NCBI GenBank assembly: GCA_013336225.1
Contig: JAAXUC010000004.1
Span: 32,421-96,420, forward strand
Direction: 5' to 3'
DNA length: 64,000 nucleotides
Origin: Candidatus Moraniibacteriota bacterium
Lineage (GTDB): Bacteria > Patescibacteriota > Minisyncoccia > Moranbacterales > GWC2-37-73
In this document: one piece after another, positions 3,835-57,549 of the stretch
Numbering within the stretch: position 1 is the stretch's first letter
Layout: the number at the start of each line of letters is the position of its first letter
Position numbers and translations under genes: made by a program
Notes under the pieces: model-generated
The model's input: only the letters and a program-made list of their open reading frames with translations
Told to the model about the DNA's origin: nothing
Database searches by the model: none

Positions 3835-3907
3835 GCCACCCTAGCTCAACGGTAGAGCTACTGTTTTGTAAACAGTAGGTTATCGGTTCAAATCCGGTGG
3901 GTGGCTC
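3835..3907 (+). tRNA. tRNA-Thr (anticodon UGU)
   Basis: Manual cloverleaf: acceptor GCCACCC/GGGTGGC, D-stem GCTC/GAGC, anticodon stem ACTGT/ACAGT with loop TTTGTAA, T-loop TTCAAAT. Confidence 0.85.
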
Positions 3908-4020
3908 ATAAATGGAAAATTTCGAATTATGAATTTTGAATTTCGAATGAATTGTTGATGTTTTAAACATTTTGTCATTGGAAATTTTTTAAAAATTAAA
4001 AATTGGAAATTGAAAATTTG
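3908..4020. repeat. AT-rich intergenic repeat module (cgaattatgaattttgaatttcgaat ... ttttaaacatt)
   Basis: The cgaattatgaattttgaatttcgaat block is shared with 60212-60245; the spacer between the two tRNAs also contains aaaatt/gaaatt repeats. Confidence 0.5.
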
Positions 4021-4043
4021 AGCCCGTAAGGGCGATGCATTTC

Positions 4044-4126
4044 GGGTAGTTACCAAAGCGGTCAACTGGATCTGGCTGTAAACCAGACGGCGTAAGCCTT
4101 CGGGGGTTCGAGTCCCTCACTGCCCA
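4044..4126 (+). tRNA. tRNA-Tyr (anticodon GUA, long variable arm)
   Basis: Acceptor GGGTAGT/ACTGCCC, anticodon stem TCTGG/CCAGA with loop CTGTAAA, long variable arm CGGCGTAAGCCTTCG, T-arm GGGGG-TTCGAGT-CCCTC. Confidence 0.85.
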
Positions 4127-4139
4127 CATATGATATTTT

Positions 4140-4170
4140 AAAGACACCCTTTTGGGTGTCTTTAAAATTT
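4140..4170 (+). terminator. rho-independent terminator (aaagacaccc-tttt-gggtgtcttt + A/T tail)
   Basis: Perfect 10-bp stem immediately 3' of tRNA-Tyr. Confidence 0.6.
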
Positions 4171-4178
4171 TATTTGTA

Positions 4179-4400
4179 GTGGGCAGTGAGGGACTCGAAC
4201 GGGTCGAAGTGAGCTAGAAATTTTCAGTAGAAAATTCGCAGCGAACGCCGATGAATGAGAGCGTGCGAGCATTCAGCGCGACCCTGGGCAAGGAGCGAAG
4301 GCGACGCGTAAATCCCTCACTCTTTGTGCAGTGAGGAACTCGAACCGGCAGAAGCGAGCATTAAGCAAAGGCGAGATGGGTGCAGGAATATGACTTAAAT
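4179..4400. repeat. tRNA-Tyr-linked repeat: two inverted copies of the tRNA-Tyr 3' end (4179-4200 and 4332-4356) flanking a conserved core (cgatgaatgagagcgtgcgagcattcagcgc...ggcaaggagcg)
   Basis: 4179-4200 gtgggcagtgagggactcgaac is the exact reverse complement of the tRNA-Tyr T-arm/acceptor 3' end; the core is near-identical to cores at 57657-57700 and 57846-57890. Confidence 0.7.
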
Positions 4401-4494
4401 ACGTGATATTTCAGCTATGGACAAAAATCCAATAAAGCCTTATACTGCTTGATAGTTGCTGATTTCAGTATCTAATCCATATCGCTACCAAAAT

Positions 4495-4567
4495 GCCGTT
4501 GTAGCTCAGTTGGTAGAGCACATCCTTGGTAGGGATGAGGTCTGCGGTCCGATTCCGCACAACGGCT
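4495..4567 (+). tRNA. tRNA-Thr (anticodon GGU)
   Basis: Acceptor GCCGTTG/CAACGGC, anticodon stem CATCC/GGATG with loop TTGGTAG, T-stem TGCGG/CCGCA with atypical T-loop TCCGATT. Confidence 0.8.
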
Positions 4568-4686
4568 CAGGTTTGATAAATTAAAAGATTTTAAAATAAG
4601 TTTCTATTTTCATTGTTTTAAGCCAGAAACAAATGAACATATGAACTAATGACAATTGTATGGCAACAAAGACAAAGGAGAATTTA

Positions 4687-4824
4687 GTGAAACTTAAATG
4701 CAGTGAATGCAAAGAGATCAACTATTACACTTCAAGAAATAAGAAGAAGATCAAAGAAAAGCTTGAGCTCAACAAGTATTGCAAAAAATGTCGCAAGCAC
4801 ACTGAACATAAGGAAATGAAATAA
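4687..4824 (+). CDS. rpmG: 50S ribosomal protein L33
   Basis: Below the 60-aa ORF-track cutoff. [45 protein letters not shown] aligns with B. subtilis L33 (CTECGERNYISKKNK...KKYC). GTG start at 4687 sits 6 nt after AAGGAG; an in-frame ATG at 4660 would add 9 aa. Confidence 0.85.
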
Positions 4825-4832
4825 CCTTTAAA

Positions 4833-4858
4833 GGGGCGGGTTTTCCCCGCCCCTTTAT
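4833..4858 (+). terminator. rho-independent terminator (aaaggggcggg-tttt-cccgcccctttat)
   Basis: GC-rich 10-bp stem plus T-rich tail directly after the rpmG stop. Confidence 0.6.
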
Positions 4859-4862
4859 ATTT

Positions 4863-4933
4863 GCGGGATTCGTATAGTGGTAGTACGTCGGTCTCCAAAA
4901 CCGTTGGCGTAGGTTCGATTCCTACATCCCGTG
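4863..4933 (+). tRNA. tRNA-Trp (anticodon CCA)
   Basis: Acceptor GCGGGAT/ATCCCGT (G1-U72 wobble), anticodon loop CTCCAAA, T-arm GTAGG-TTCGATT-CCTAC. Confidence 0.8.
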
Positions 4934-5096
4934 CATGCAGCAATAAAAACAGATACTTAATTAAATTAGGTACCTGTTTTTATTTATTGTTAACATTCTT
5001 TTTTTGTATCAGTTTATTTTGATTATATTTTGTTTGGATAATATGCTAGGATGAATTTTGGGTGAATTATTCTAAGAAAATATCAAAATAAAAATA

Positions 5097-20868: not shown

Positions 20869-22110
20869 ATGAAACAATCACAACTATTCACCAAAACTAA
20901 AAAAGAAGCTCCATCAGATGAGGTGGCCAAGAACGCGCAACTTTTGATTCGCGCCGGTTTTATTCACAAAGAAATGGCTGGAGTGTATGCATATATGCCG
21001 CTTGGTCTGCGAGTGCTGGAAAACATTAAGCGTATTGTTCGCGAAGAAATGAATGCTGTCGGCGGTCAGGAATTGATGATGACAACCTTGCAACCCAAAG
21101 AAATTTGGGAGAAGACTGGTCGTTGGGATGATGCCAAGGTGGATAATTGGTTCAAGACTAAATTGGTTAATGGCACAGAACTTGGAGTGGGACTGACTCA
21201 TGAAGAACCAATTGTTGATGCTGTTAGCAACTATCTCAATTCATACAAGGGCATGCCATTTTCAGTGTATCAAATTCAGAATAAATTTAGAAATGAAAAA
21301 CGGGCCAAGAGCGGAATTTTGCGTGGACGCGAATTTTTGATGAAAGATATGTACACATTTTGCAAAGATCAAGAGCAGCATGAGCAGGAATATGAAAAGA
21401 TTGTGGCTGCATATCATCGTGTTTATGCGCGCCTAGGGTTGGGGGAAATCACATATCGCACCTATGCTGATGGAGGAATTTTCACGCCTCGTTTTAGCGA
21501 TGAATTCCAAACACTCACTGAGGTGGGAGAAGATACGATTTATGTTGATGAGAAAAAACGAATTGCAATCAATGAGGAAATTTTGACGGATGAGAACTTG
21601 AAAAAACTCGGCCTTGATCGCAATGATCTTGTGGCGAAAAAAGGCGTTGAAGTCGGAAACACTTTTCATTTGGAAAGCAAATATACTGACGCATTGGATT
21701 TGTTCTATATTGATGAAAAAGGTGAAAAGCAATCAATTTTGATGGGATGCTATGGAATTGGAGTTAGTCGCTTGATGGGAGTTGTTGCGGAACTTTTTTC
21801 TGATGACAAGGGCTTGGTGTGGCCGGAAAATGTTGCGCCGTTTGCTGTGCATCTTTTGAGTCTTGGACAAGATGAAGAAACTGAAAAAATTTGCATCGAA
21901 CTTGAAAAAAACGGAATTGAAGTTTTGTTTGATGATCGCGACGCACAGGCTGGTGCAAAATTTGCCGACTCAGATTTGATTGGAATTCCATGTCGAGTGG
22001 TTGTTAGTAAAAAATCTTTGGCTGCTGGGGGACTTGAAGTGAAAATGCGAAATGAAAGTGAAAGCAAGATTATGACAGTGGAGGAATTGTTGCAAATGCT
22101 AAAAAAGTAA
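20869..22110 (+). CDS. proS: prolyl-tRNA synthetase, short form lacking the INS editing domain
   Basis: N-terminus MKQSQLFTKTKKEAPSDEVAKNAQLLIRAGFIHK...GVYAYMPLG parallels bacterial ProRS; class II motifs and anticodon-binding C-terminus present. At 413 aa there is no room for the ~180-aa insertion domain. Confidence 0.85.
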   Translation: MKQSQLFTKTKKEAPSDEVAKNAQLLIRAGFIHKEMAGVYAYMPLGLRVLENIKRIVREEMNAVGGQELMMTTLQPKEIWEKTGRWDDAKVDNWFKTKLVNGTELGVGLTHEEPIVDAVSNYLNSYKGMPFSVYQIQNKFRNEKRAKSGILRGREFLMKDMYTFCKDQEQHEQEYEKIVAAYHRVYARLGLGEITYRTYADGGIFTPRFSDEFQTLTEVGEDTIYVDEKKRIAINEEILTDENLKKLGLDRNDLVAKKGVEVGNTFHLESKYTDALDLFYIDEKGEKQSILMGCYGIGVSRLMGVVAELFSDDKGLVWPENVAPFAVHLLSLGQDEETEKICIELEKNGIEVLFDDRDAQAGAKFADSDLIGIPCRVVVSKKSLAAGGLEVKMRNESESKIMTVEELLQMLKK

Positions 22111-22543: not shown

Positions 22544-25483
22544 ATGCAATTCAAGAAAGTAGATGCAAGAAAAAAATATTCAGAAATGGAGAAAGAAATA
22601 ATTCAATTTTGGAAAGATGATGGAACTTTCCAAAAATCCATTGAGCAAAAAAAAAATAATAAATATTTTAGTTTTTATGATGGTCCACCATTTATTACTG
22701 GTGTTCCACATTATGGAACATTGTTATCCTCTATCGTGAAGGATGCTGTTCCTAGATATTGGACAATGAAGGGATATCGTGTTGAGCGTCGATGGGGATG
22801 GGACTGTCATGGTCTTCCAGCTGAAAATATGGTGGAGAAGAAATTGGGAATCAAAAATAAACGTGAAATTGAGGAAAAAGTTGGTATTGCTACCTTTGTC
22901 GAGGAATGCATTAAGGAAACATCTCAAATTGCCTCTGAATGGGAAACTGTTATTGATAGAGTTGGTCGCTGGGTGGAGTTTAAAAATGCATACAAGACGA
23001 TGGATAAGAATTATATGGAATCCGTATGGTGGGCATTTTCGCAGCTTCACAAAAAAGGATTGATTTATGAAGATGTGAGAGTATCGCTATATTGTCCTAG
23101 ATGTTCAACGCCTTTATCAAATTTTGAAATTGCGATGGATAATAGCTATGAGATGGATAGTGATCCTTCAGTATATGTAAAAATGAAGATAAATGGTCAA
23201 GAAAATTCATATTTCTTGGTTTGGACAACAACTCCATGGACACTACTTGCTAATGTGGCCTTGGCTGTTGGCGGCGATATTGACTATGTTAAAGTTAGAT
23301 ATAATGATAAAAATGGCAATCCTGAATTTTTTATACTAGCTAAGAATGTATATGAGAAAAGAAGAGACGATTTTTTCCCTGGTGTTAAGAATCTTGGGCC
23401 AGATGAAGTTCCTCCAGTTGCATCAGAAATAGTTGAAGAATTTAAGGGCAATGATTTATTGATTAAGGAGTATGAATCAATATTCCCACATGAAATCGAA
23501 AACGGATATAAAGTAATTGCGGCAGATTTTGTTACAACTGATGATGGTTCGGGGATTGTGCATATCGCTCCAGCATTTGGAGAGGATGATTTTCAAGTTA
23601 GAAAGTCCAATGATTTACCAATAATCATGAATGTTAATGAAGAAGGTCAATTTACTGATGGACTATGGAGTGGACAGAAAGTTTGGGATGCTAATAATGA
23701 GATAGTTAAATGGCTCAAGGAAAACAATATACTTTTTAAGCGCGAACAGATTACACATAGTTACCCCCATTGTCATAGGTGTCATACAAAGCTTATTTAC
23801 AAAGCACAACCAGCTTGGTATGTGAATGTTTCAAAAATTCGTAAAGATTTGATTGCGGAAAACGAAAAAATAAATTGGTTTCCTGAATTTTTAAAACATG
23901 GTCGTTTTCAAAATGGTATTGAAGGTGCTCCAGATTGGAACATTTCTCGTGATCGTTATTTTGGAACAGCAATTCCAGTTTGGAAATGTGATGAATGTGA
24001 TGAAATGAAAGTTTTTGGGTCCTATGAAGAATTGAAAAATGCCTCTGGTATTGAGCTTGACGACTATCATCGTCCAAAGGTTGACGATGTTACTTTTGCT
24101 TGTGAAAAATGTCACGGTAAAATGAAGAGAATACCGCAAGTTTTTGATTCTTGGATTGAATCAGGCTCAATGCCGTTTGCTCAATTTCATTATCCATTTG
24201 AAAATAAAGAGGTTTTTGAAAAGAGTTTTCCTACGGACTTTATTTCAGAATATATTGCCCAAACAAGAGCTTGGTTTTATGTGCTGCACGTTCTTTCTGT
24301 GGGAATTTTTGGAAAAATAAGTTTCAAAAATGTTGTAACAACAGGAACAATTGCTGGAAATGATGGAAAAAAGATGTCAAAATCACTGGGGAATTATACG
24401 CTGCCCGATGTCGTTTTAGAGCAATACAGCGCTGATGCACTTCGACTTTATCTTTTGTCTTCACCGCTACTCAATGCTCAAAATATTAGTTTTTCAGAGA
24501 AATCCATACAAGATATTCAAAGAAAGGTATTGTCAACGCTTTGGAACAGCTATGCTTTCTTTACTCTCTATGCTGATGTTGATAAGTGGACGCCAAAAAA
24601 TAATGCTGGTTCTCCAGCCGATTCTGATAATCTTTTGGATCTTTGGATCGTGTCTGAGCTAAACAAGCTTATTAGAGAGGTTGATACTAATATGGAAGCA
24701 TACGAATTAGTAAAAGCAATCAGACCCTTTGAGAATTTTGTTGATAACTTATCAAACTGGTATATTCGTCGAAGTCGTAAACGTTTTTGGCGAAGTGAGA
24801 ATGATGATGATAAAGGCAATGCGTATCAAACCTTGCACTATGTGTTAGTTACTCTTTCAAAAATAATGGCGCCATTTGCACCATTTATATCTGAAGAGAT
24901 TTATAAGAATTTAACCGGATTGGAATCTGTTCACTTGGAAGATTTTCCTATTGCTGATGCAAAAAGAATAGATGAGGAACTGAACAACAATATGAGTGAT
25001 TTGCGTGAAATTATAACAATAGGTTTGCAAGATCGCGCAAAAAACAAAATTAAGGTTAGACAACCGTTGAGTGGAGTTTTTCTTGGTCAGAAATATAGTA
25101 AAGTCTTCAATGAAACTATAAACAAGCCAGAGTGGAGTATTATTTTAACAGAAGAGTTAAATGTGAAAGGTGCAACACTTGGAACCGAAACGGAAACTGT
25201 AGCAATTGATTCAAATATTACTGCAGAGCTTAAGCTTGAGGGTCAGGCAAGGGAAATCGTTCGTTATATCCAAGAAATGCGTAAGGAGGCTGGTTATGAA
25301 GTTGATAACCATATTATTGTGGGTTATTCCGGGGTAGAGGAAGTCTTTAATGAATTTGGAGATCTTATATCTAGGGAAATATTAGCGGATAAAATACAAT
25401 CTAATAATTTGCCCGAATATGACTTACAAAAAGAGTTCACATTTGATGAGAAAGTGTTTTCAATTACAATAAAAAAACTGTAA
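22544..25483 (+). CDS. ileS: isoleucyl-tRNA synthetase
   Basis: Class I HIGH-region variant PHYGT, KMSKS (KKMSKSLGN), CP1 editing domain and Zn-binding C-terminus; 979 aa. Confidence 0.95.
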   Translation: MQFKKVDARKKYSEMEKEIIQFWKDDGTFQKSIEQKKNNKYFSFYDGPPFITGVPHYGTLLSSIVKDAVPRYWTMKGYRVERRWGWDCHGLPAENMVEKKLGIKNKREIEEKVGIATFVEECIKETSQIASEWETVIDRVGRWVEFKNAYKTMDKNYMESVWWAFSQLHKKGLIYEDVRVSLYCPRCSTPLSNFEIAMDNSYEMDSDPSVYVKMKINGQENSYFLVWTTTPWTLLANVALAVGGDIDYVKVRYNDKNGNPEFFILAKNVYEKRRDDFFPGVKNLGPDEVPPVASEIVEEFKGNDLLIKEYESIFPHEIENGYKVIAADFVTTDDGSGIVHIAPAFGEDDFQVRKSNDLPIIMNVNEEGQFTDGLWSGQKVWDANNEIVKWLKENNILFKREQITHSYPHCHRCHTKLIYKAQPAWYVNVSKIRKDLIAENEKINWFPEFLKHGRFQNGIEGAPDWNISRDRYFGTAIPVWKCDECDEMKVFGSYEELKNASGIELDDYHRPKVDDVTFACEKCHGKMKRIPQVFDSWIESGSMPFAQFHYPFENKEVFEKSFPTDFISEYIAQTRAWFYVLHVLSVGIFGKISFKNVVTTGTIAGNDGKKMSKSLGNYTLPDVVLEQYSADALRLYLLSSPLLNAQNISFSEKSIQDIQRKVLSTLWNSYAFFTLYADVDKWTPKNNAGSPADSDNLLDLWIVSELNKLIREVDTNMEAYELVKAIRPFENFVDNLSNWYIRRSRKRFWRSENDDDKGNAYQTLHYVLVTLSKIMAPFAPFISEEIYKNLTGLESVHLEDFPIADAKRIDEELNNNMSDLREIITIGLQDRAKNKIKVRQPLSGVFLGQKYSKVFNETINKPEWSIILTEELNVKGATLGTETETVAIDSNITAELKLEGQAREIVRYIQEMRKEAGYEVDNHIIVGYSGVEEVFNEFGDLISREILADKIQSNNLPEYDLQKEFTFDEKVFSITIKKL

Positions 25484-25526: not shown

Positions 25527-25558
25527 AAAAAGTAGCCACTAAGTGGCTACTTTTTTTT
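25527..25558 (+). terminator. rho-independent terminator (aaaaagtagccac-taa-gtggctacttttttttt)
   Basis: Perfect 11-bp stem plus T9 after ileS. Confidence 0.7.
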
Positions 25559-25608: not shown

Positions 25609-25672
25609 TTGACATTAATTAGCGATAGCAATAGAATAAGATCATATTAAAGGTTAACTTATAGGTTAACTA
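25609..25672 (+). promoter_or_regulatory. promoter (TTGACA -17- TAGAAT) followed by a tandem GGTTAACT palindromic pair (candidate operator) upstream of the HTH-XRE gene
   Basis: -35 at 25609-25614, -10 at 25632-25637; ggttaact at 25652-25659 and 25664-25671 (GTTAAC is self-complementary). Confidence 0.5.
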
Positions 25673-25678
25673 CTATGT

Positions 25679-26707
25679 ATGCTTATTGAATCAAAAATTA
25701 TTGGTATAAATATTAAAAAGCAAAGGCTTTTGAATAAGATGTCACAAGTTGATGTTGGAAATCTTTTAAGTACTACAAAATCTTATATATGTAGCTTGGA
25801 GCGTGGTAATAGGAACCCTTCTTTGAAAACTTTAAAAAAAATAGCACTTATCTTCAATGTACCCGTAGAAATTCTTTTGAGGGGTAATGATATAGCTGAT
25901 TCAAAATATCAAAAGATAAGGGATGATAAATTTCAGCAATTTGAGAAGAAGATAAAAAATTGGAATATTACTTCACAGAAAAAATGGTGCAATTTTTTCA
26001 TCGATGAAGAAAGTATGTTTTTCAATAAAAATAGAATTAATCAGATAAAGACTATAGTGAAAAGATATGCTGATAATAAAAACTTATCAGTTATAGATTC
26101 GTCATGTGGAACTGGAAGACTTACGGAATTACTTGCAAAAGATGGCTTTAAAAAAATATATGGAATTGATGCCAATCCATATGTTGTAGAGATAGCAAGA
26201 GAGCAAGCAATACAAAAAGCATTAATGATAAACTATGATATATCTATTCCGCCAAGTTTTGAAAAAAAAGTATTTGATGTGGTTTTTAACATAGGAACAT
26301 CGATAGGGTATTTGCAAAGTGAGGAGGATAATTTTGAGAATATCAGAAGAATAAGTTGTTTAGTCAGTAGGGGTGGAAAAATAATAATTGAGGCAGTTAA
26401 TCCTATTGGGATATTGCGTAATTTTAGTTCAAGCGAAACACTTAAATTGGATGGAAAGAAGCGATCATATCAACGTTTTTTTGATGTAAGGAGTTCAACA
26501 AGTATTGAAAATGTTATTGATACTTATGATAATAAAAAACAAATTGAATATTTTAGCAGTATTCGATTATTTTTTCCCCACGAATTAATATCTATTTTTT
26601 TGAATAGTGGGTTTATTTTAGTTGATCTGCTTGATAATAATTTAACCAGGAAAAATACCGTTAATTCACCTAGGCTATGGTATATTTTTCAGAAAAAAAA
26701 TGTTTAA
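25679..26707 (+). CDS. HTH-XRE (Cro/C1-type) DNA-binding domain fused to a class I SAM-dependent methyltransferase domain
   Basis: N-terminus QVDVGNLLSTTKSYICSLERGNRNPSLKTLKKIALIFNVPVEILL = XRE HTH; C-terminal motif I VIDSSCGTGRLT, post-I GIDANP, motif II FDVVFN. Confidence 0.7.
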   Translation: MLIESKIIGINIKKQRLLNKMSQVDVGNLLSTTKSYICSLERGNRNPSLKTLKKIALIFNVPVEILLRGNDIADSKYQKIRDDKFQQFEKKIKNWNITSQKKWCNFFIDEESMFFNKNRINQIKTIVKRYADNKNLSVIDSSCGTGRLTELLAKDGFKKIYGIDANPYVVEIAREQAIQKALMINYDISIPPSFEKKVFDVVFNIGTSIGYLQSEEDNFENIRRISCLVSRGGKIIIEAVNPIGILRNFSSSETLKLDGKKRSYQRFFDVRSSTSIENVIDTYDNKKQIEYFSSIRLFFPHELISIFLNSGFILVDLLDNNLTRKNTVNSPRLWYIFQKKNV

Positions 26708-27797
26708 TTTTATTGGTAAAATGCAATTTCATCAGAATAAAATAAATTCTCTCCTTGAGGATAGAATTGAAAATTCACTAACTACTGTCTTTATTGATCT
26801 GGTTAGCGGTGTTTGTAATCATAAGTGTGTGTTTTGTGATGGAAATTTTAATCCAATAAAAAAGCTAATTTTTTCCAAGAGTAAGTTGCTTGAAATAGCT
26901 AATGATCTTGGTGATATGAATGTTGATTCCGTGATTATGGTTGGCGAGGGTGGAGAATCATTATTGAATCCCAATTTTTGTTTTTTTTCAAAGAAATTGT
27001 TGGATAAAAAAATTCATCTTGGAATGTATACGAACGGTGGCATGTTGAATAAGAAAAATCTCGGTGTTATTTCAAGGTTTGATTTTATTAGAATTTCTTT
27101 GGACTCTGGATCATCGATAACTCATCAGCAAGTGCATGGGTATGAGGATAGAGATGATTTTAATAAGATATTTGAATCAATTGAATATTTAAGAAAAAGA
27201 AGCAAAATACAAATAGGATCATCATTCTTGCTATTACCACAGAACGTAGATGATTTATATGAGGCTGCAAAGAGATTAAAGGAGGCTGGTGCGAATTATA
27301 TAGAGGTTAGGCCAGCATATTTAAGGGATTACGGCTTTGATTTAAAGGCTTTTAAATCGATAAAGGATCGTTTCTTATACCAATTGGATAAAATGGACGT
27401 CCTAAATGATGATAGCTTTAAGGTGATTATTAATAATCAGTTAAAGGAGATAATTAAAAATAAAAAAACAATTCGTGGTGATGTTACAAGGTTGAAAAGA
27501 TCAAGAAATTGTTTAACTTGTAGGTTGAGATTAGTTGTGAGTCCAACGGGATGTTATATTTGTCCACCAAATAGAAGTAAAGAAGATTTTCGCATAGGTG
27601 ATATTTGGAATAATCCTTTACGTAGCATTTGGAATAATAGGGAACATTTGGATAAGATTAATAAAAAATGTGATTTAAAATGTCCTTACCATAAGCAAAA
27701 TAATTTTTTAATTAAATTAAAGAAAAATAATTTAATTTTTGATGATAAGTGCTTGCTGCCAGCTGGCAAATTAATTACTCAGAAAAATTTTCTATAA
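26700..27797 (+). CDS. radical SAM enzyme with C-terminal SPASM/twitch-like Cys-rich domain
   Basis: CX3CX2C (VSGVCNHKCVFCDG); C-terminal CLTCRLRL...GCYICPP...GDIWNNPLRSIWNN...CDLKCPYH resembles SPASM auxiliary-cluster motifs; overlaps the upstream gene by 8 nt. Confidence 0.8.
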   Translation: MFNFIGKMQFHQNKINSLLEDRIENSLTTVFIDLVSGVCNHKCVFCDGNFNPIKKLIFSKSKLLEIANDLGDMNVDSVIMVGEGGESLLNPNFCFFSKKLLDKKIHLGMYTNGGMLNKKNLGVISRFDFIRISLDSGSSITHQQVHGYEDRDDFNKIFESIEYLRKRSKIQIGSSFLLLPQNVDDLYEAAKRLKEAGANYIEVRPAYLRDYGFDLKAFKSIKDRFLYQLDKMDVLNDDSFKVIINNQLKEIIKNKKTIRGDVTRLKRSRNCLTCRLRLVVSPTGCYICPPNRSKEDFRIGDIWNNPLRSIWNNREHLDKINKKCDLKCPYHKQNNFLIKLKKNNLIFDDKCLLPAGKLITQKNFL

Positions 27798-27801
27798 AAA
27801 T

Positions 27802-28899
27802 ATGATAAAACCTATAAACTTTACAAAATATTATAAAGAAATTTTATCAGAATTGATGCTAGCATTTAGCGAGTTTATTTTAAGTGGGCAATATATCGGA
27901 GGTAAATTGGTGGAAAAATTTGAAGATAAAGTTAAAAAATATTTGGGTGCTAAACATGCAATAGGATGTAAGAGCGGAACACATGCTCTTCAGCTTGCGC
28001 TTTTAGCTGCTGGTGTTGAGAAAGGTGATGAAGTTATTACGGTTGCTAATACATATTACGCAACGGTATATGCAATTACTGCTGTAGGAGCAACGCCAAT
28101 TTTTTGTGATATTTTACCAGAAAATGGGCAAATTGATCATAATAAAATTGAAGCTAAAATTACTAAAAAAACAAAGGTTATTTTGCCAGTTCATTTGTAT
28201 GGGATACCTGTTAATTTGGGGGAAATTAGAAAAATTTGCAAAAAATATAAGTTAATATTAATTGAGGATTGTTCTCATGCATTTGGAACAAGGTTAAATG
28301 GTGAATATATAGGAAGTGATTCAGATTTTGGATGCTTTAGTATGTATCCAACAAAAAATCTCGGTGCTTTTGGTGATGCTGGATTTATAACAACAAAAAA
28401 TAAGAAATATGAAAGCAAGATTCGCGAATTGATTTATTTGACAGATGCTAAGCGGGTAAAATTTAATCCAAAAGCTATTCATGCTATGCTGGATCCTCTT
28501 CAGGCAGCCTTGCTTTTGGTAATGCTAGATAAGATGGATCAAGCACGCAAAGATAGAATTGAGAGAGCGGATGAATATAGGAAAAATCTAGAGGAATATA
28601 TCAGGATAAGTAAGGTTGGAAGTGATAGTGTTGTGAATCCTCACATGTTCCCAATTTTTATTAAAAATAGGAACAAGTTGATAAAATTTTTGGCAGATTC
28701 CTCTGTGCATGTGCAAGTTCATTATCCAACCAATCTGCATTGTCTGTCACAGTTTGGATCATACGCCAAAGGGTATCTCCCAGAAACGGAGAGGCACAAT
28801 AGAGAAGAGGTCAGTCTTTCTGTTCATCCATCTGTTTCAATATCTGAAGTTAAGAAAATATGTAAATTAATTAAGCAGTATGTCGAAATTAACAAATAG
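27802..28899 (+). CDS. DegT/DnrJ/EryC1/StrS-family PLP-dependent (sugar) aminotransferase
   Basis: Family N-terminus GGKLVEKFEDKVKKYLGAKHAIGCKSGTHALQLAL; PLP-Lys motif FSMYPTKNLGAFGDAGFI. Confidence 0.8.
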   Translation: MIKPINFTKYYKEILSELMLAFSEFILSGQYIGGKLVEKFEDKVKKYLGAKHAIGCKSGTHALQLALLAAGVEKGDEVITVANTYYATVYAITAVGATPIFCDILPENGQIDHNKIEAKITKKTKVILPVHLYGIPVNLGEIRKICKKYKLILIEDCSHAFGTRLNGEYIGSDSDFGCFSMYPTKNLGAFGDAGFITTKNKKYESKIRELIYLTDAKRVKFNPKAIHAMLDPLQAALLLVMLDKMDQARKDRIERADEYRKNLEEYIRISKVGSDSVVNPHMFPIFIKNRNKLIKFLADSSVHVQVHYPTNLHCLSQFGSYAKGYLPETERHNREEVSLSVHPSVSISEVKKICKLIKQYVEINK

Positions 28900-29884
28900 A
28901 AAGAAAATTGTTGTTTTGGTTCTTGGATTTAGGGCGCTTTCTTTTATTAAGAAGGGTTATTTAGCGTCAATTATTAAGGCTGCCGATAAAATAAAAAATG
29001 CAAAAGTTGATATTGTTTATCTTGATAATTATTCAAGAGATGGATCAGTACCATACATCATGAAAAATTATAAAAATATCGATCTATTATCTGCGACTGA
29101 AAATTATTTTTACTGTAAGGGTGTAAATGTCGGTTTGCAATTTTCATATCAAAAATATAGACCAGATTACTTTATGCTTGTAGATGCTGATAATCCATGT
29201 GAAGAGAGCGCTTATGGTAAGTTGATTGATTTTGCAAATAAAAATGCAAAAGTGGGAATTGTTCAGCCGCTAGTTAAGGGTCTAAGTGATTCAAATAGAG
29301 TATATTCATGTGGGCACGTATATGAAAATGGTATTTCATGTAGGCCATTAAGAGAAATCCCAAAAAACAAAAAAATATTATTAAATCTTCAAAGTTGTTC
29401 AATATCATCAACACTTGTCAAAACAAAGGTTTTTGAAAAATGTGGTTTGCTTGATCCTATTTTCAAGATTTATTATGAAAGTAGCGACTTATCATTCAGA
29501 GCAAGAAAAGCGGGCTTCTTGTGTGCTTGCCATGTTGAGGCTGTGTGTTTTAATGAGGGTGCAAAAGTTTCAAAAACTGATAATTTTCATGAGGGTTATT
29601 TTAGAAATAGAAACAATTTAATTTTCTGGAAAAAACATGATAATGAAAAATATGAAATTTTAAAAAAGATATATCAAGAAAGGCATAAGCAATTAAATGT
29701 AAAATTGGCTAATTTGAAATATGTCACAGACATGGAAGAGGAGAGTGAGCGAAGGGGGATTGAGGACGGCATAAAAATTACTAAAAAAATGGTTGCAGGT
29801 ATCAAGAATGAAGAGAGGATAGATAAATTTGATAAAACTGATGCTATTGTGATTCAGGAAGCATGCAAAAATAATGAAAAATAA
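28880..29884 (+). CDS. family 2 glycosyltransferase
   Basis: GT2 motifs DIVYLDNYSRDGS, DxD (LVDADN), and YESSDLSFRARKAGF (ED-DLS-R-R-AG). Confidence 0.65.
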   Translation: MSKLTNRKKIVVLVLGFRALSFIKKGYLASIIKAADKIKNAKVDIVYLDNYSRDGSVPYIMKNYKNIDLLSATENYFYCKGVNVGLQFSYQKYRPDYFMLVDADNPCEESAYGKLIDFANKNAKVGIVQPLVKGLSDSNRVYSCGHVYENGISCRPLREIPKNKKILLNLQSCSISSTLVKTKVFEKCGLLDPIFKIYYESSDLSFRARKAGFLCACHVEAVCFNEGAKVSKTDNFHEGYFRNRNNLIFWKKHDNEKYEILKKIYQERHKQLNVKLANLKYVTDMEEESERRGIEDGIKITKKMVAGIKNEERIDKFDKTDAIVIQEACKNNEK

Positions 29885-32150
29885 CATGTCAAAATCATTT
29901 CATCTTTTCTTATTGAAATTTTTCTATTCCATGTTATGCATTAAGGATTATTTCATGATGGGTTTTGAAATCAAAAAGCTTAAGAAGATAGCCAGCAAAT
30001 CAGTAGACACATTGCAATTTAATGATAAATTGAATGAAAATATCGTTGTTGGTGTGGACGAAAAAGAAGGATATTATATTGATTCAAAAAAGCCATCTTA
30101 TTACAAGAAGCACTTTAATGATTTTTTTCATAATGATTTGTATGGTAAATATAGATCAGATGAAAATATTATTTTAAGTACTGGTGCTCTTAATCAGGAT
30201 GAATTTTGTCTTCCGCGTTCGTTGAAATTTGCCATAAGCTATGCTCTTACGAGAAATTGGTATGGTTATTCTTGCAGCTTAGGTAGGGAATCAGCTCGCT
30301 TGGCTATAGCTGATCTGGAAAACCATAAAATTAATAGCAATATCTACAATGAAAATAATGTAGCATTGATACAGGGTGTTACGGCCGGATTATTTCACTT
30401 ATTATCATTTTTGAAAGAGAGAGAGGAAGATGGTAACTTCGGCATTTTGACGCATTATCCAACTTACGTGCCTTTTGCAGCAACTTGCGAAAAAATCGCA
30501 CCCACAAAAATAATAAATTTTTTTGGTGATAAAAAATTTAGCATCGAAGCGTTTAAGCGAAATATAGATAAAACAACAAAGGTGATTTTATTGCTTGGAG
30601 ATTTTAATCCATTAGGAAAACTTATGGATGTTTCTTTTGTTAATGAATTGATTGATATTTGTGATGAGAAGTCGATATATCTTATTATTGATGAGGCTGG
30701 TTCAAAATATCCGGAAAATAATTGGAATAATTTGAAAAATAGTGATTTCTTAATCAGGATGGATAGCTTATCTAAAAAAGTTTCAGTTCCTGGTATGAAA
30801 TTGGGATATTTTATTGCAAATGAGGAGATAATCTCTGAATTTTATGAGCGAGCATCAACAACCTATGGTGGCCCATCATCTTTTTTTTACATCCTACAAG
30901 AACTTGATGCAAGGTTCGATCTTTTTTTCCGCAAGGGTTTGCTTAAGATTGGATCAGGAGAGTTGGCATTATTTGATAAAAATTACAATCTAGGATTATT
31001 TTTTTTGAATATTCTCTATGGTCAATATATTAAAAATAAACATTTTTTTGAGTTAAAAATAAAACAGCATCGCAGTATCGTTATTGATAAGCTTATCAGT
31101 CATCATCCTCAATTGGTGAAAAAAATAATCATGCCAGAAACTGGTATTAATATTTTTTTGCAATTAGATGTCGATTACGGCAGTTATGAATTTTTCAGAA
31201 AATTGATAGTTGAAAAAAGGACAGCAGTTTTTCCGGGACTTTGTTCTGCTACAGATAAAGAATGCTGGATAAGAATAACATGTGGTGTTGATAAAAAAAC
31301 TTTGCAAACTGGTTTGGATAATTTGGTTGATTTTCTTAAGACTGAGTGGATCAAGAAACAAATACAAAAAGAGCCATTTTTTGAAAAATTACTTCTTGAT
31401 TTTGGTCAGTATGGGAGTTATGGTTACTTGTCATTTTTTGAACACATTTATGATGTTCAAAAAAATGGAATGAAAATATTGGATATTTTTGAGCTGAAAA
31501 CTAGAAGAAAGTTGGATCGTGATTTACTTAGGGAGGTGATATTTTGTCATGATGCTGGGAAAGTTGTGAGTGTGATAGTGTTTCGAATTATGAGAATTTT
31601 GCAACTTCAAAAAAAATATGGAAAAATCCCATTTTCAGTTTTTTCTAAATTGAGAGACGAGGATTTACTGTTTTTGCGAAAGGAAATAGTGGATTGTTTT
31701 GTTTTTACAAAAGAATATTTTTACGAAATGTTTCCATTTTTGCATGATTATTCTGAATTAATGAATTTAGATAGTGATAAATATCTTAAAGATACCGTCT
31801 TTACTGAGAAGATGCTTCAGCTTGCTCTGGATAAATATCCAAATTATGAGAAAAAAATAGAAGAAATGAAATTTATAATATTGAACAATTCCGCAAAAAT
31901 TAATATCAATAATTTAATGATTGGATATAATCCGTATATTTTCATTTTGGATTTTGCAGATAAAATTGCTGATTATAATCTTCCAGAAGAACCAACTCTG
32001 GCAAAAATAGATGAACTTTTGAGAAAAAAGAAAAAATATGTAATTAAACGATATTGTCATAATAATCGATCCATGGAAGCTATTGTCCATTGCGAGTTTA
32101 GTCATCTGTATGAGCTAATTAGGGAATCAAGAGTTTTTCATAAATGTTAA
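29874..32150 (+). CDS. fusion protein: class I/II PLP aminotransferase domain + C-terminal putative HD-type phosphohydrolase domain
   Basis: Aminotransferase PLP-Lys motif SLSKKVSVPGMKLGYFIAN (cf. SFSKxxxxxGxRxGY); C-terminal H...HDAGK (FEHIYD...VIFCHDAGKV) resembles HD-domain motifs I and II. Confidence 0.55.
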   Translation: MKNNMSKSFHLFLLKFFYSMLCIKDYFMMGFEIKKLKKIASKSVDTLQFNDKLNENIVVGVDEKEGYYIDSKKPSYYKKHFNDFFHNDLYGKYRSDENIILSTGALNQDEFCLPRSLKFAISYALTRNWYGYSCSLGRESARLAIADLENHKINSNIYNENNVALIQGVTAGLFHLLSFLKEREEDGNFGILTHYPTYVPFAATCEKIAPTKIINFFGDKKFSIEAFKRNIDKTTKVILLLGDFNPLGKLMDVSFVNELIDICDEKSIYLIIDEAGSKYPENNWNNLKNSDFLIRMDSLSKKVSVPGMKLGYFIANEEIISEFYERASTTYGGPSSFFYILQELDARFDLFFRKGLLKIGSGELALFDKNYNLGLFFLNILYGQYIKNKHFFELKIKQHRSIVIDKLISHHPQLVKKIIMPETGINIFLQLDVDYGSYEFFRKLIVEKRTAVFPGLCSATDKECWIRITCGVDKKTLQTGLDNLVDFLKTEWIKKQIQKEPFFEKLLLDFGQYGSYGYLSFFEHIYDVQKNGMKILDIFELKTRRKLDRDLLREVIFCHDAGKVVSVIVFRIMRILQLQKKYGKIPFSVFSKLRDEDLLFLRKEIVDCFVFTKEYFYEMFPFLHDYSELMNLDSDKYLKDTVFTEKMLQLALDKYPNYEKKIEEMKFIILNNSAKININNLMIGYNPYIFILDFADKIADYNLPEEPTLAKIDELLRKKKKYVIKRYCHNNRSMEAIVHCEFSHLYELIRESRVFHKC

Positions 32151-32166
32151 TATAATTTTAAAAAGT

Positions 32167-32748
32167 ATGATCAAGATGGAATATTTTATTAAAAAAATTG
32201 TTGATATATTAAGCAAAAAAGGCTTGGAAGATAAGGAAATTTCCAATATCATGCTTACTTCCAATGAAACACTTATTAATGAGATAGCTGATGTCATTTT
32301 TGATTTTATGAATCGTGGAAAAAAAATAATATACAATGTGCAAGTTGATTATTCTAAAAATGTGGAGGAGATGGTTGAGATTACAATGCATGAATGGGCT
32401 AATGAAGACATCACCTCGGAACATTTCCTTAATATCAGGGGTAAATCCGCAGAAGTGAGTGTTGAGCTTATACATTTCAATCGAAGCATCCTAAGCGATG
32501 ATGCACTTCTTGAGATGAGTGCTATGGGTTATCGTGCGGCTAATATGCAGGAATTCTTGGCATTTGGTGCGAAATATCCTGATCTGCAACGCAAATTTCC
32601 AATTGTGGGATTGGGGTCAGTTTGGCACAGTGAAGACAGTCATCTTGTTGCATATATGAGCTGGGGAGCTTCTGGCCGTTACCTCCATTTGTGGCATCTT
32701 GATCTTGTTTGGGGTGACGGTTGTCGTTTTGCTGCCGTTAAAGAATAA
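32167..32748 (+). CDS. hypothetical protein (193 aa), last gene of the AT-rich operon
   Basis: No motif recognised; distinctive HLWHLDLVWGDGC C-terminus. Confidence 0.35.
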   Translation: MIKMEYFIKKIVDILSKKGLEDKEISNIMLTSNETLINEIADVIFDFMNRGKKIIYNVQVDYSKNVEEMVEITMHEWANEDITSEHFLNIRGKSAEVSVELIHFNRSILSDDALLEMSAMGYRAANMQEFLAFGAKYPDLQRKFPIVGLGSVWHSEDSHLVAYMSWGASGRYLHLWHLDLVWGDGCRFAAVKE

Positions 32749-34277: not shown

Positions 34278-35078
34278 ATGGCTAAAATAATGCTAGTTGA
34301 AGACGATCCGATGATCGCCGAAATATATCAAAAAAAATTCGAATTGGCAGGATTTGAGGTTGTTAATGCTGTGACTGGAAAAGAGGTTTTGAAATATGCG
34401 CTTGAGCAGAAATTCGACCTCATTTTGTTGGATTTGGTTTTGCCTGAGATGAGCGGGATGGATGTGCTTAAAGAGCTGCGCAGCAATGTTGCATATGACA
34501 GTGAATTAAAGGTGATAGTGCTTAGCAATTTGGATAAAACTGAAAATGAAAAAAAGGCCAAGGATTTGGGGGCAAATGATTTTATTGGAAAAACTCAATA
34601 CAGTCCGTCCGAACTTGCAATTGAGGTGCAACGACGCTTGAATGAATATGACGAACAAAAGAAAAATAAGGAACGCTTGAGTAATGGAGGAGGTGCTGGC
34701 ATCGTGTGCGCTGGCAAGAAAATTCTTTTCATTGAAGATGAGGAAATTTTCCTGGAAATGTTTGGTGGGAAATTGGAAAACGAGGGATATTGCGTGGAAT
34801 ATGCCAAAAATGGTGTTTGGGGTAGCAAGCTTGCAACTGAAAAAGATTTTGATTTGATAATCACTGATATGGTCATGCCGGCTATGGGCGGCGAAGAAAT
34901 TGTCAGACGGCTCAAGCTGGATGATAGAACAAAAAACTTGCCGATTATTGTGCTTTCCGCCTCGCTGATCGAAGAAGATATTCAGCCGGTGCGAGAATTG
35001 GGAGTGACTGATTTTTTTGAAAAAACACATTTAGTCCCAAGTGATCTTGCCCGGCGAGTCGGAGAAATATTGAATTAA
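34278..35078 (+). CDS. response regulator with two tandem receiver (REC) domains and no output domain
   Basis: REC1: MLVEDDPMIAEIY...DLILLDLVLPEMSGMDVLKELR; REC2: KILFIEDEEIFLEMF...DLIITDMVMPAMGGEEIVRRLK; conserved Asp/Lys positions present. Confidence 0.75.
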   Translation: MAKIMLVEDDPMIAEIYQKKFELAGFEVVNAVTGKEVLKYALEQKFDLILLDLVLPEMSGMDVLKELRSNVAYDSELKVIVLSNLDKTENEKKAKDLGANDFIGKTQYSPSELAIEVQRRLNEYDEQKKNKERLSNGGGAGIVCAGKKILFIEDEEIFLEMFGGKLENEGYCVEYAKNGVWGSKLATEKDFDLIITDMVMPAMGGEEIVRRLKLDDRTKNLPIIVLSASLIEEDIQPVRELGVTDFFEKTHLVPSDLARRVGEILN

Positions 35079-35095
35079 CATTAATTTTAAAATAT

Positions 35096-36511
35096 ATGCA
35101 GCGAACAAATATTGTCGACACACCTAAGTTTATTGGACAAACTGTCAAATTAGCAGGCTGGGTTCACATTCGTCGTGATCACGGAAAGTTGATCTTTGTG
35201 GATTTGCGCGATCGCAGTGGAATCATCCAAACCGTGATCATTCCTGATCACGTGGAAGCGCATGACAATGCTAAAAGACTGCGCAGTGAGTTTGTGATTG
35301 AAATGGAAGGATTGGTCAAAGAACGTCCCATGAGTGCTAAGAATGAAAAATCAGTCACTGGGGGAGTTGAGCTGGAAGTGACTTCAATCAACATTTTGAA
35401 TGAAGCAAAAAACACCCCATTTGAAATTTCCAAAGACACTAAGGAGGTTGATGAGAAATTGCGTTTGAAATATCGCTATCTCGATTTGCGCAGCGAACGA
35501 ATGCGAGATAATATTTTGACTCGCTATAATGTGATTAAATTCTTCCGAGATTTCTTGGGGGAGCAAGGTTTTATTGAAGTTGAAACTCCAATTTTGGGCA
35601 AAACCACTGCTGAAGGTTCAAGGGATTATGTGGTGCCATCACGAATTTATAAGGGAAAGTTTTATGCGCTTCCACAATCACCGCAACAATACAAACAATT
35701 GTTGATGGTGGCTGGAATTGAAAAATATTTTCAAATTGCCAGATGTTTTCGCGACGAAGACACTCGCGGTGATCGTCAACCAGAATTCACTCAATTGGAC
35801 ATGGAAATGAGTTTTGTGGAGCAAGAAGATGTGATGAATGTGGTGGAAGAAATGCTCATTAAGCTTGTGCAAACTCAATTTCCTGAAAAGAGAATTCAGT
35901 CCATTCCATTTCCACGCCTCACCTACAAGGAATCCATGGAAAAATATGGCAATGATAAACCAGATATTCGCGAAGACAAGAATGATCCAAATCTGCTCGC
36001 TTTTTGTTGGGTGGTGGACTTTCCGTTCTTTGAAAAAGATGAAGAATCTTCAACTGGTTGGACATTCACTCACAATCCTTTTTCTCGTCCAAAACCAGAA
36101 TTCATGGAGCAATTGATGAACAAAGAAAACATCGCTGAGATTTTGACCACACAATATGACATCGTGCTGAATGGTTATGAAGCTGGCGGGGGAAGCATTC
36201 GAAATCATGAGCCGAAAGCGCTGCGCAAGGTTTTGGAAATCATGGGAATTTCAGAAGAAAATGTGCAACGAGATTATGGACATATGTTGGAAGCTTTCAA
36301 ATATGGCGCTCCACCGCACGGAGGAATTGCGCCAGGAGTTGATCGCTTGGTGATGATTCTGCGCAATGAGCCAAACATTCGCGAAGTGATTGCTTTTGCA
36401 AAAACAGGGGAAGCTGAAGATCCGATGATGGAAGCTCCAAGTGTGCTGGATGAAAAACAACTCATTGAGGCTGGCATTAAAATTGTCACCAAAAAGAAAA
36501 AAGTTGTCTAA
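35096..36511 (+). CDS. aspS: aspartyl-tRNA synthetase, short form without the GAD insertion
   Basis: N-terminal OB fold; class II motif 2 FRDEDTRGDRQPEFTQLDMEMSF; motif 3 GGGSIRNH; C-terminus GAPPHGGIAPGVDRLVMIL. Confidence 0.85.
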   Translation: MQRTNIVDTPKFIGQTVKLAGWVHIRRDHGKLIFVDLRDRSGIIQTVIIPDHVEAHDNAKRLRSEFVIEMEGLVKERPMSAKNEKSVTGGVELEVTSINILNEAKNTPFEISKDTKEVDEKLRLKYRYLDLRSERMRDNILTRYNVIKFFRDFLGEQGFIEVETPILGKTTAEGSRDYVVPSRIYKGKFYALPQSPQQYKQLLMVAGIEKYFQIARCFRDEDTRGDRQPEFTQLDMEMSFVEQEDVMNVVEEMLIKLVQTQFPEKRIQSIPFPRLTYKESMEKYGNDKPDIREDKNDPNLLAFCWVVDFPFFEKDEESSTGWTFTHNPFSRPKPEFMEQLMNKENIAEILTTQYDIVLNGYEAGGGSIRNHEPKALRKVLEIMGISEENVQRDYGHMLEAFKYGAPPHGGIAPGVDRLVMILRNEPNIREVIAFAKTGEAEDPMMEAPSVLDEKQLIEAGIKIVTKKKKVV

Positions 36512-57463: not shown

Positions 57464-57536
57464 GGGCACATAGCTCAGTTGGTAGAGCAGCGGCCTTTTA
57501 AGCCGATGGTCGGGGGTTCGAATCCCTCTGTGCCCA
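57464..57536 (+). tRNA. tRNA-Lys (anticodon UUU)
   Basis: Acceptor GGGCACA/TGTGCCC, anticodon loop CTTTTAA, T-arm GGGGG-TTCGAAT-CCCTC. Confidence 0.85.
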
Positions 57537-57549
57537 CATATGATAATTT

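Follow-up and report, generated by a model that had tools for sequence, protein, structure and literature searches.

We analysed a 64,000-nucleotide stretch of a Candidatus Moranbacteria genome (Candidatus Moraniibacteriota bacterium, assembly GCA_013336225.1, contig JAAXUC010000004.1, positions 32,421 to 96,420 of the forward strand; this whole stretch is called the window below), and found in it a gene encoding one protein of 758 amino acids (aa), in which a fold-type I pyridoxal phosphate (PLP) domain is fused to a C-terminal domain of the HD superfamily. The PLP half resembles SbzP and PseP, enzymes that act on S-adenosylmethionine (SAM) and nicotinamide adenine dinucleotide (NAD). By analogy with these enzymes, the PLP domain would make an NAD-derived dinucleotide and the fused HD domain would cleave its phosphate or diphosphate, a reading to which we give about an even chance. 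The gene closes a compact operon, which by its likeness to published examples is presumably an NAD biosynthetic gene cluster ('NAD-BGC'). No paper searched describes an SbzP-family gatekeeping enzyme to which an HD domain is fused, here encoded in a compact candidate-phyla-radiation operon, and the combination seems new; no paper linking an HD domain with SbzP or azaindanes was found in that literature either. A preliminary description of this DNA, made from the sequence alone, had likewise known of no characterised example of the fusion.

Two domains in one protein

The open reading frame (ORF) begins with an ATG and overlaps the preceding glycosyltransferase gene by 11 nt. Both motifs noted in the preliminary description, a PLP-lysine motif and an H...HDxGK pattern, were confirmed in this 758-aa ORF. 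The first ATG is backed by residues 1–28, which are conserved with the relative P0002, and by Y18 in the N-terminal helix, which is invariant in the alignment of relatives; one gene caller took the alternative start M29 for the same protein (P0001, 730 aa). The two-domain architecture was found in at least 14 other proteins. Full-length fusions of 715–904 aa lie on many independent contigs (P0002–P0006, P0009, P0010, P0012, P0014, P0015 and P0022–P0024), so that the search for the same fusion in other genomes, which the preliminary description had proposed, gave a positive answer. From 5.8 billion proteins, full-length relatives of about 770 aa with 41–67% identity were retrieved, whose hosts include one Candidatus Falkowbacteria metagenome-assembled genome (MAG) and one Paenibacillus sp. 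T2-29, and the same search returned two relatives of about 500 aa without the C-terminal domain. A scan of genome contigs for more loci gave nothing beyond the already known Falkowbacteria MAG, and two metagenome scans for further loci gave no match. The full-length AlphaFold model of the protein (predicted template modelling (pTM) score 0.81) has no low-confidence linker, and its helix 474–499 runs continuously into the HD domain. As modelled, the fusion protein is a rigid two-domain biosynthetic enzyme, with no flexible linker between its halves.

To the PLP half, Pfam Aminotran_1_2 (PF00155) was matched on residues 99–336 (E = 1.3e-24; 87.6 bits against a cut-off of 19.7). The PLP motif, SLSKKVSVPGMKLGY, occupies residues 298–312, with K301 (nt 30774–30776) as the PLP lysine, and the residues of the class I scaffold are invariant (K301 in SLSKK, D273 in DEAG and N245 in NPLG). 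The closest sequence in the PDB was PseP (8k3h/8k3i), which matched residues 77–482 with E = 6.3e-57 and 33% identity over 400 aligned residues, and the second-ranked match was an ordinary aminotransferase with E = 4.5e-13. Foldseek on the full-length model gave the same first rank to 8k3h_A, PseP with NAD (E = 2.5e-26, TM 0.79), followed by aspartate aminotransferases at 5e-17 or worse.

PseP is a stable homologue of SbzP, and these enzymes eliminate methylthioadenosine from SAM and form two C–C bonds to the nicotinamide ring of NAD, with no transamination; their product is a 6-azatetrahydroindane dinucleotide, the first intermediate to altemicidin, SB-203207 and SB-203208 (PMC13518217, PMC13351049). 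By mutation and cryo-electron microscopy, F413, Y418, F457, R466 and Y699 of PseP are important for NAD binding, SAM binding likewise depends critically on Y699, F457 and R466, K629 is the PLP lysine, and D462 makes a hydrogen bond to the 3'-OH of the nicotinamide ribose (PMC13518217, PMC13351049). A conserved NAD site is the accepted criterion for SbzP-like function (PMC13518217). Six of these seven key residues are retained in the fusion protein (F413 as F85, Y418 as Y90, F457 as W129, R466 as R138, Y699 as Y371 and K629 as K301), the exception being D462, whose counterpart is C134. All six are invariant in the close family, and a tryptophan at the F457 position is also the consensus in the canonical SbzP clade, whose members are 42–54% identical to PseP. 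The helix of residues 74–92, which aligns with PseP 405–420, bears F85 and Y90, the counterparts of the nicotinamide-riboside contacts, and the adenine/SAM contacts correspond to W129, R138 and Y371.

By these sequence and structure comparisons, the PLP half is most like SbzP/PseP and not like an ordinary aminotransferase, and it keeps the NAD/SAM contact residues. The transaminase label given to it in the preliminary description thus gave way to a much closer family, and the proposed coupling of amino transfer with dephosphorylation is unsupported, because the PLP half is far closer to PseP/SbzP, which does not transaminate, and retains the residues for beta-NAD and SAM. The nucleotide-linked substrate that had been considered together with it fits the evidence. 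The public label of this protein family, 'aspartate/methionine/tyrosine aminotransferase', is probably misleading as well.

The C-terminal domain begins at about residue 490–500 and is about 260–270 aa long; the extension noted earlier is therefore real, though shorter than the 290 aa or so first assigned to it. The segment FEHIYD lies at residues 522–527 and VIFCHDAGKV at 555–564. From the sequence, the putative metal ligands are H524 (nt 31443–31445), H559-D560 (nt 31548–31553), D696 (nt 31959–31961) and D700. Across 17 aligned HD domains whose identity falls as low as 17% (488 is added to alignment positions to give the protein numbering), H524, V528, H559, D560, G562, K563, D640, D696, D700, L716, K719, Y722, R726 and Y727 were invariant. 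The six-ligand H/HD/H/H/D site of the di-iron oxygenases MIOX, PhnZ and TmpB was not found in these 17 sequences; because only two histidines are invariant among them, the domain is of the phosphohydrolase type and not of the di-iron oxygenase type. Pfam HD was matched by 9 of the 17 domains (best E = 1.3e-6), and one of them, in P0021, passed the gathering cut-off with 25.9 bits. A model of the domain calculated from six sequences was all-alpha, with a predicted local distance difference test (pLDDT) value of 90.4 and a pTM of 0.87, as predicted for an HD fold; the absence of such a fold, which the preliminary description had named as a refutation, was not what the prediction gave. Against PDB sequences, the C-terminal part gave nothing meaningful either as a single sequence or as a six-sequence profile, and the 17-sequence profile gave weak matches (E 0.14–0.6) to a Cas3 HD domain, over the HD-GK block, and to residues 29–76 of YfbR. 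Motif and predicted structure both place the C-terminal domain in the HD superfamily as a genuine member, although one that has diverged so far that it scores below the Pfam cut-off. Together, the conservation and the domain model bear out that a PLP domain of fold type I and a domain of the HD superfamily are joined in one protein.

The HD clade is rare. An exhaustive profile search of 1.84 billion cluster representatives recovered 14 proteins only: ten are fused to an SbzP-like domain or are fragments bearing its end, in three the HD domain is fused to a large N-terminal region that includes an NAD-binding domain of the lactate/malate-dehydrogenase type, and the remaining one is a short fragment. 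No complete stand-alone protein of the clade was found among these representatives. P0011 and P0013, considered as stand-alone HD proteins, were rejected, since both are truncated gene calls whose start falls within the PLP domain. This almost exclusive fusion to NAD-related enzymes offers a hypothesis for an otherwise unannotatable domain.

A second architecture of the clade, the sole one besides the SbzP-like fusions, of about 950–1005 aa with the HD domain at the end, was seen in P0016 (locus L009), P0017, P0019 and P0021. The dehydrogenase-type domain was matched in P0016 and weakly in P0019, and the middle 400 aa or so have no family. P0021 is the only member of the HD clade above the Pfam HD threshold.

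The operon and its counterparts in other genomes

As shown in Table 1, the fusion gene is the last of five genes, which are tightly packed or overlapping and are preceded by a promoter-like site. A predicted hairpin with a T-run separates this operon transcriptionally from ileS, the isoleucyl-tRNA synthetase (IleRS) gene.

Table 1. Features of the fusion gene, its operon and the adjoining ileS gene, by position in the window
Feature	Positions	Strand	Basis
IleRS gene (ileS), adjoining the cluster	22544..25483	+	TIGR00392, 881 bits
Terminator-like hairpin and T-run, 3' of ileS	25527..25558	+	Read from sequence; not listed by the scanner
Best sigma-70-like promoter match of the region, TTGACA-17-TAGAAT, 11/12	25609..25637	+	Consensus match only
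Operon gene 1, XRE-type helix-turn-helix (HTH) domain (HTH_3) fused to class I SAM methyltransferase	25679..26707	+	Pfam HTH_3, Methyltransf_31/25/11
Radical SAM enzyme, weak SPASM-like C-terminus	26700..27797	+	Pfam Radical_SAM, E = 1.8e-16
DegT/DnrJ/EryC1-type (sugar) aminotransferase	27802..28899	+	Pfam, E = 6.5e-90
GT2-family glycosyltransferase	28880..29884	+	Pfam Glycos_transf_2
Fusion gene (SbzP/PseP-like PLP domain and divergent HD domain)	29874..32150	+	758-aa ORF, ATG start
Long N-terminal helix, residues ~7–42 (then disordered residues 42–71)	29874..29999	+	AlphaFold secondary structure, pLDDT
Fold-type I PLP domain, SbzP/PseP type, residues ~74–490	30093..31343	+	Pfam, PseP match, Foldseek, residue map
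Divergent HD-superfamily domain, residues 489–758	31338..32147	+	Motif conservation, domain model

For the radical SAM protein, all NCBIfam matches were far below the cut-offs and no PDB sequence match was obtained. The PDB relatives of the DegT protein include QdtB, WbpE and a scyllo-inositol transaminase, and the GT2 gene is 54–76% identical across loci by tblastn. The first gene, HTH-methyltransferase, is kept in loci L002 and L006, and its product may be a regulator, an enzyme or both. Just downstream of the fusion gene, a 193-aa ORF (32167–32748) had only a weak CARF-like PADLOC match (E = 0.004) and no Pfam or NCBIfam match; its G+C content at third codon positions (GC3), 0.34, is intermediate, and none of the other loci has a counterpart.

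Two other assignments of the operon were considered and rejected. For a viperin-like radical SAM enzyme with an HD domain acting on modified CTP, the viperin models reached 37 bits against a threshold of 180. For a desosamine-like pathway (DesI/DesII radical SAM/DesV/DesVI), no DesII-type match was found among the radical SAM matches, and L003 is without radical SAM and methyltransferase genes. Among the known anti-phage defence systems in PADLOC, the fusion protein had no match and its neighbours had only generic HTH and radical SAM matches.

This cassette or a variant of it was present in L002, L003, L005, L006, L011 and the locus of P0010, and the radical SAM gene is kept in all of these but L003. 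In L003/L004 the order is DegT-DegT-GT2-fusion; L011/L012 and the P0010 locus have a second GT2 gene and as many as two radical SAM genes; L010 has a stand-alone PLP enzyme and no HD gene. The GT2 gene lies directly upstream of the fusion gene (in L010, of the PLP gene), usually overlapping it, in all loci examined except L001 and L008, and this position is kept in L002, L003, L005, L006, L010, L011 and the P0010 locus. The content of the cassette resembles that of published NAD-BGCs, in which radical SAM enzymes, extra PLP enzymes, methyltransferases, glycosyltransferases and non-ribosomal peptide synthetases (NRPS), and often an aminoacyl-tRNA synthetase gene, are found (PMC9516700, PMC13518217).

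Among the fused homologues seen, that of Paenibacillus (L001, 8747–12987; Paenibacillus sp. T2-29, CP178917.1) alone comes from a named strain whose genome is complete. It lies inside an NRPS/polyketide synthase cluster, at its end, between a gene of the Phosphodiest family (the nucleotide-pyrophosphatase family) and a HAD gene, so that three phosphohydrolase-type activities (Phosphodiest, HAD and HD) surround one PLP enzyme. These neighbours also suggested that a PhnZ-type HD oxygenase might serve in phosphonate catabolism, which was rejected, as the extra histidine ligands are absent. In L012, a human-gut metagenome contig, an IS110-family transposase gene (224–1498) stands where L011 has ileS, radical SAM and DegT genes, and downstream both loci have a RelA/SpoT-type HD_4 gene and type-IV-secretion-like genes.

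Proposed reaction and its alternatives

The substrates, the chemistry and the action of the HD domain on the product of the PLP domain we infer as follows. The PLP domain would bind SAM as an external aldimine on K301, as in PseP, and would eliminate methylthioadenosine to give a vinylglycine-type quinonoid. Its product would be a 6-azatetrahydroindane (azaindane) dinucleotide or a close analogue. The HD domain, with H524, H559-D560 and D696/D700 as presumed metal ligands, would act on the nucleotide part of this product, cleaving the diphosphate with release of adenosine monophosphate and/or removing a phosphate, and the other four enzymes of the cassette would methylate, rearrange, aminate and glycosylate the NAD-derived core. 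PsePQ, a natural fusion of the PseP annulase with the next tailoring enzyme, is a precedent for joining the PLP domain to the next enzyme of a pathway (PMC13518217). The HD-clade architecture with a dehydrogenase-type NAD-binding domain is a hint that also supports action of the HD domain on an NAD-derived product.

Several observations weigh against this proposal. The chemistry is assigned by analogy at 33% identity to PseP, and the fusion clade forms a separate branch with about 30–34% identity to canonical SbzP/PseP. At the position of D462, which is aspartate in the canonical clade, the fusion clade has C, H or S. The counterpart of R466 is lost in more distant fused members, and the second substrate could therefore differ from beta-NAD. 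The helix bearing F85 and Y90 was modelled at moderate confidence (pLDDT about 60). On the side of the HD domain, the profile check suggested in the preliminary description gave a score above the cut-off for one relative but not for the fusion protein itself, which scored 14–14.5 bits against the cut-off of 22 for Pfam HD (PF01966). A stand-alone relative, P0007 (58% identical), has DegT, GT2 and PLP genes and no HD gene on its 6-kb contig, and the HD step is thus dispensable or replaceable. Finally, the cassette occupies a site where related genomes hold dTDP-sugar genes, and it could therefore serve glycan metabolism rather than a diffusible natural product.

Of the alternatives, the one that survives best keeps both domains and changes the second substrate. 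Elimination at the gamma position of SAM would be retained, and the four-carbon amino-acid unit would be moved to a nucleotide-linked acceptor, e.g., an NDP-amino-sugar supplied by DegT, whose nucleotide handle the HD domain would hydrolyse in a glycan or sugar module. The replaced D462 and the variable R466 of distant members are consistent with this, as are the DegT and GT2 genes, which are always in the cassette, the GT2 gene being translationally coupled to the fusion gene. Genes like RmlC/RmlB/RmlD for dTDP-sugars stand beside ileS in cluster-free relatives, epimerase and nucleotidyltransferase genes occur near L003 and L010, and Mur24, another SAM-using PLP enzyme, moves the same four-carbon unit to nucleoside acceptors (PMC9516700). 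On the other hand, every member examined has F85 and Y90, whose PseP counterparts stack on the nicotinamide and its ribose, and no precedent for such a reaction in the SbzP/PseP family was found in the literature searched. We regard this alternative as possible, with a probability well below even.

It is unlikely that the HD domain is not a hydrolase at all, serving instead as a nucleotide-binding regulatory or scaffold domain, like HDOD or the C-terminal domain of PPX/GppA, or as an HD-type di-iron oxygenase. The relative P0018, which has ND in place of HD, and P0007, which is without the domain, would suit a non-catalytic role. However, the H...HD...D set and K563 are invariant in the 17 divergent sequences, which is the pattern of catalytic HD enzymes, and with two invariant histidines only there is no six-ligand site of the MIOX/PhnZ type.

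Less probable still is a genuine class I aminotransferase joined to a phosphatase, working like HisC followed by histidinol-phosphate phosphatase and converting a phosphorylated keto compound into an amino alcohol or amino sugar. The Aminotran_1_2 match, the PLP lysine, D273, N245 and R467 of the class I scaffold, and many weak NCBIfam aminotransferase matches, including hisC (E = 4.9e-13, 48.7 bits against a cut-off of 276), are in its favour. However, these NCBIfam scores are at most 83 bits against cut-offs of 276–650, the E-values favour PseP by more than 40 orders of magnitude for sequence and by 9 for structure, and conservation extends to the NAD/SAM contacts and to the N-terminal helix specific to the family. 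An assembly or frameshift artefact fusing two separate genes, the other refutation named in the preliminary description, has next to no probability, because the architecture recurs in at least 14 other proteins and in independent assemblies of NCBI, JGI, ENA and Logan, and the modelled junction is continuous and of high confidence; no point in favour of an artefact was found.

If the PLP domain does make an NAD-derived dinucleotide for the HD domain, the locus predicts a downstream route different from that of altemicidin, with a fused HD phosphohydrolase and radical SAM, sugar aminotransferase and glycosyltransferase steps, and its product is likely a new NAD-derived metabolite. Reports of enzymes that take the pyridinium ring of NAD as a carbon building block are confined to the SbzP type, and only the altemicidin pathway has been worked out.

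The neighbouring ileS gene and comparison with known systems

Five independent candidate-phyla-radiation-type loci extend far enough to show whether an IleRS gene adjoins the cluster, and in every one it does: in the window, L003/L004, L006 and L011 it stands upstream, and in L002 on the downstream side; no other flanking gene common to these loci was found. Its GC3 is 0.266 against a window median of 0.373, and the six lowest GC3 values among the 33 long genes of the window belong to IleRS and the five cassette genes (0.22–0.27 against a median of 0.37). The same low GC3 is shared by IleRS and the cluster in L003 and L011, and the leucyl-tRNA synthetase in L003 and the prolyl- and aspartyl-tRNA synthetases (ProRS and AspRS) in the window have normal values. 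The window IleRS is of an ordinary Moranbacteria type: it is 100% identical to a protein annotated in a Candidatus Moranbacteria MAG, and many of its relatives share 60–80% identity with it. Two close relatives (75–76% identity) have no adjacent cluster and a normal GC3, and it is at this same site beside ileS that cluster-free relatives carry the dTDP-sugar genes. Co-transfer of ileS with the cluster is thus likely, given the recurrent adjacency, the shared low GC3 and the normal GC3 in cluster-free loci.

What the linkage means is a separate question. That ileS is clearly a self-resistance gene did not hold up, since the cluster is missing beside close relatives of this IleRS. A functional link, as with SbzA (resistance, isoleucine transfer), is conceivable but rather doubtful; if functional, the linkage points to an antimetabolite targeting the synthetase. 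Alternatively, ileS could be only a recombination anchor beside a variable sugar locus. We also put forward, as a speculation with a low probability, that candidate-phyla-radiation bacteria (Moranbacteria, Falkowbacteria and a human-gut-metagenome lineage) carry a compact and horizontally mobile pathway from NAD and SAM to an azaindane-type nucleoside that mimics an aminoacyl-adenylate and targets IleRS. In such a pathway, the adjacent low-GC3 ileS would travel along, either to supply the resistant target or, like SbzA, to act as a partner that transfers isoleucine, and the HD domain would be a new way of trimming the dinucleotide, complete in itself.

Other genes of the window were also noted. 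IleRS, ProRS and AspRS are three aminoacyl-tRNA synthetase genes within 16 kb. ProRS (20869–22110, 413 aa) and AspRS (35096–36511, 471 aa) are unusually short against NCBIfam profiles of about 560–590 residues, and their matches fall in two separate stretches. A response-regulator protein (34278–35078) has two receiver-domain matches, at residues ~2–130 and ~145–260, and the matched ranges give no sign of a DNA-binding output domain. Four tRNA genes lie at 3835–4934 (Thr-TGT, Tyr-GTA, Thr-GGT and Trp-CCA), and a tRNA-Lys gene at 57464–57537.

Very small-genome bacteria are thought to have little secondary metabolism. A cluster of this kind was therefore unexpected in such hosts, one lineage of which is from human-gut samples. 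The host also differs from those of SbzP/PseP, as the candidate-phyla-radiation group is outside the phyla named in a review (PMC9516700).

Compared with the SbzP/PseP systems of altemicidin/SB-203208 (PDB 8k3h, 8k3i), the fusion protein has the same fold, PLP lysine, N-terminal F/Y helix and W/F-R-Y adenine/SAM contacts. Radical SAM, PLP, methyltransferase and glycosyltransferase genes and an adjoining aminoacyl-tRNA synthetase gene are found in SbzP/PseP clusters as in the window; unlike sbz, the cassette has no homologues of SbzQ, SbzI or SbzN/O/H. In PsePQ the fused partner is an N-terminal alpha-ketoglutarate dioxygenase, whereas it is a C-terminal HD domain here. In Streptomyces, a three-enzyme system, SbzN/SbzO/SbzH, removes the ADP-ribose part of the azaindane dinucleotide (PMC9516700, PMC13518217). 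We propose only a functional analogy between this system and the HD domain, in that both would process a dinucleotide with diphosphate cleavage first (PMC9516700, PMC13518217). The folds of the three enzymes (sugar-isomerase-like, BtpA-like and aldose-epimerase-like) are unrelated to HD, and the HD domain, unlike them, could do phosphoanhydride or phosphoester steps only and not glycosidic cleavage.

Among HD enzymes, OxsA, YqeK, PgpH, YfbR and SAMHD1 have the H...HD...D pattern in common with the fused domain, and OxsA trims phosphates off a nucleotide natural-product intermediate. There is no significant sequence similarity to OxsA-type phosphohydrolases (E of at least 0.14 against PDB sequences), and the fused domain differs from them by about 100 extra residues and the additional invariant D640, K719, Y722, R726 and Y727. 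HisC and its phosphatase likewise bring a class I/II PLP fold and a phosphohydrolase step to one metabolite, as the fusion protein would, but the fused PLP domain is much nearer to the C–C bond-forming SAM/NAD enzyme than to HisC.

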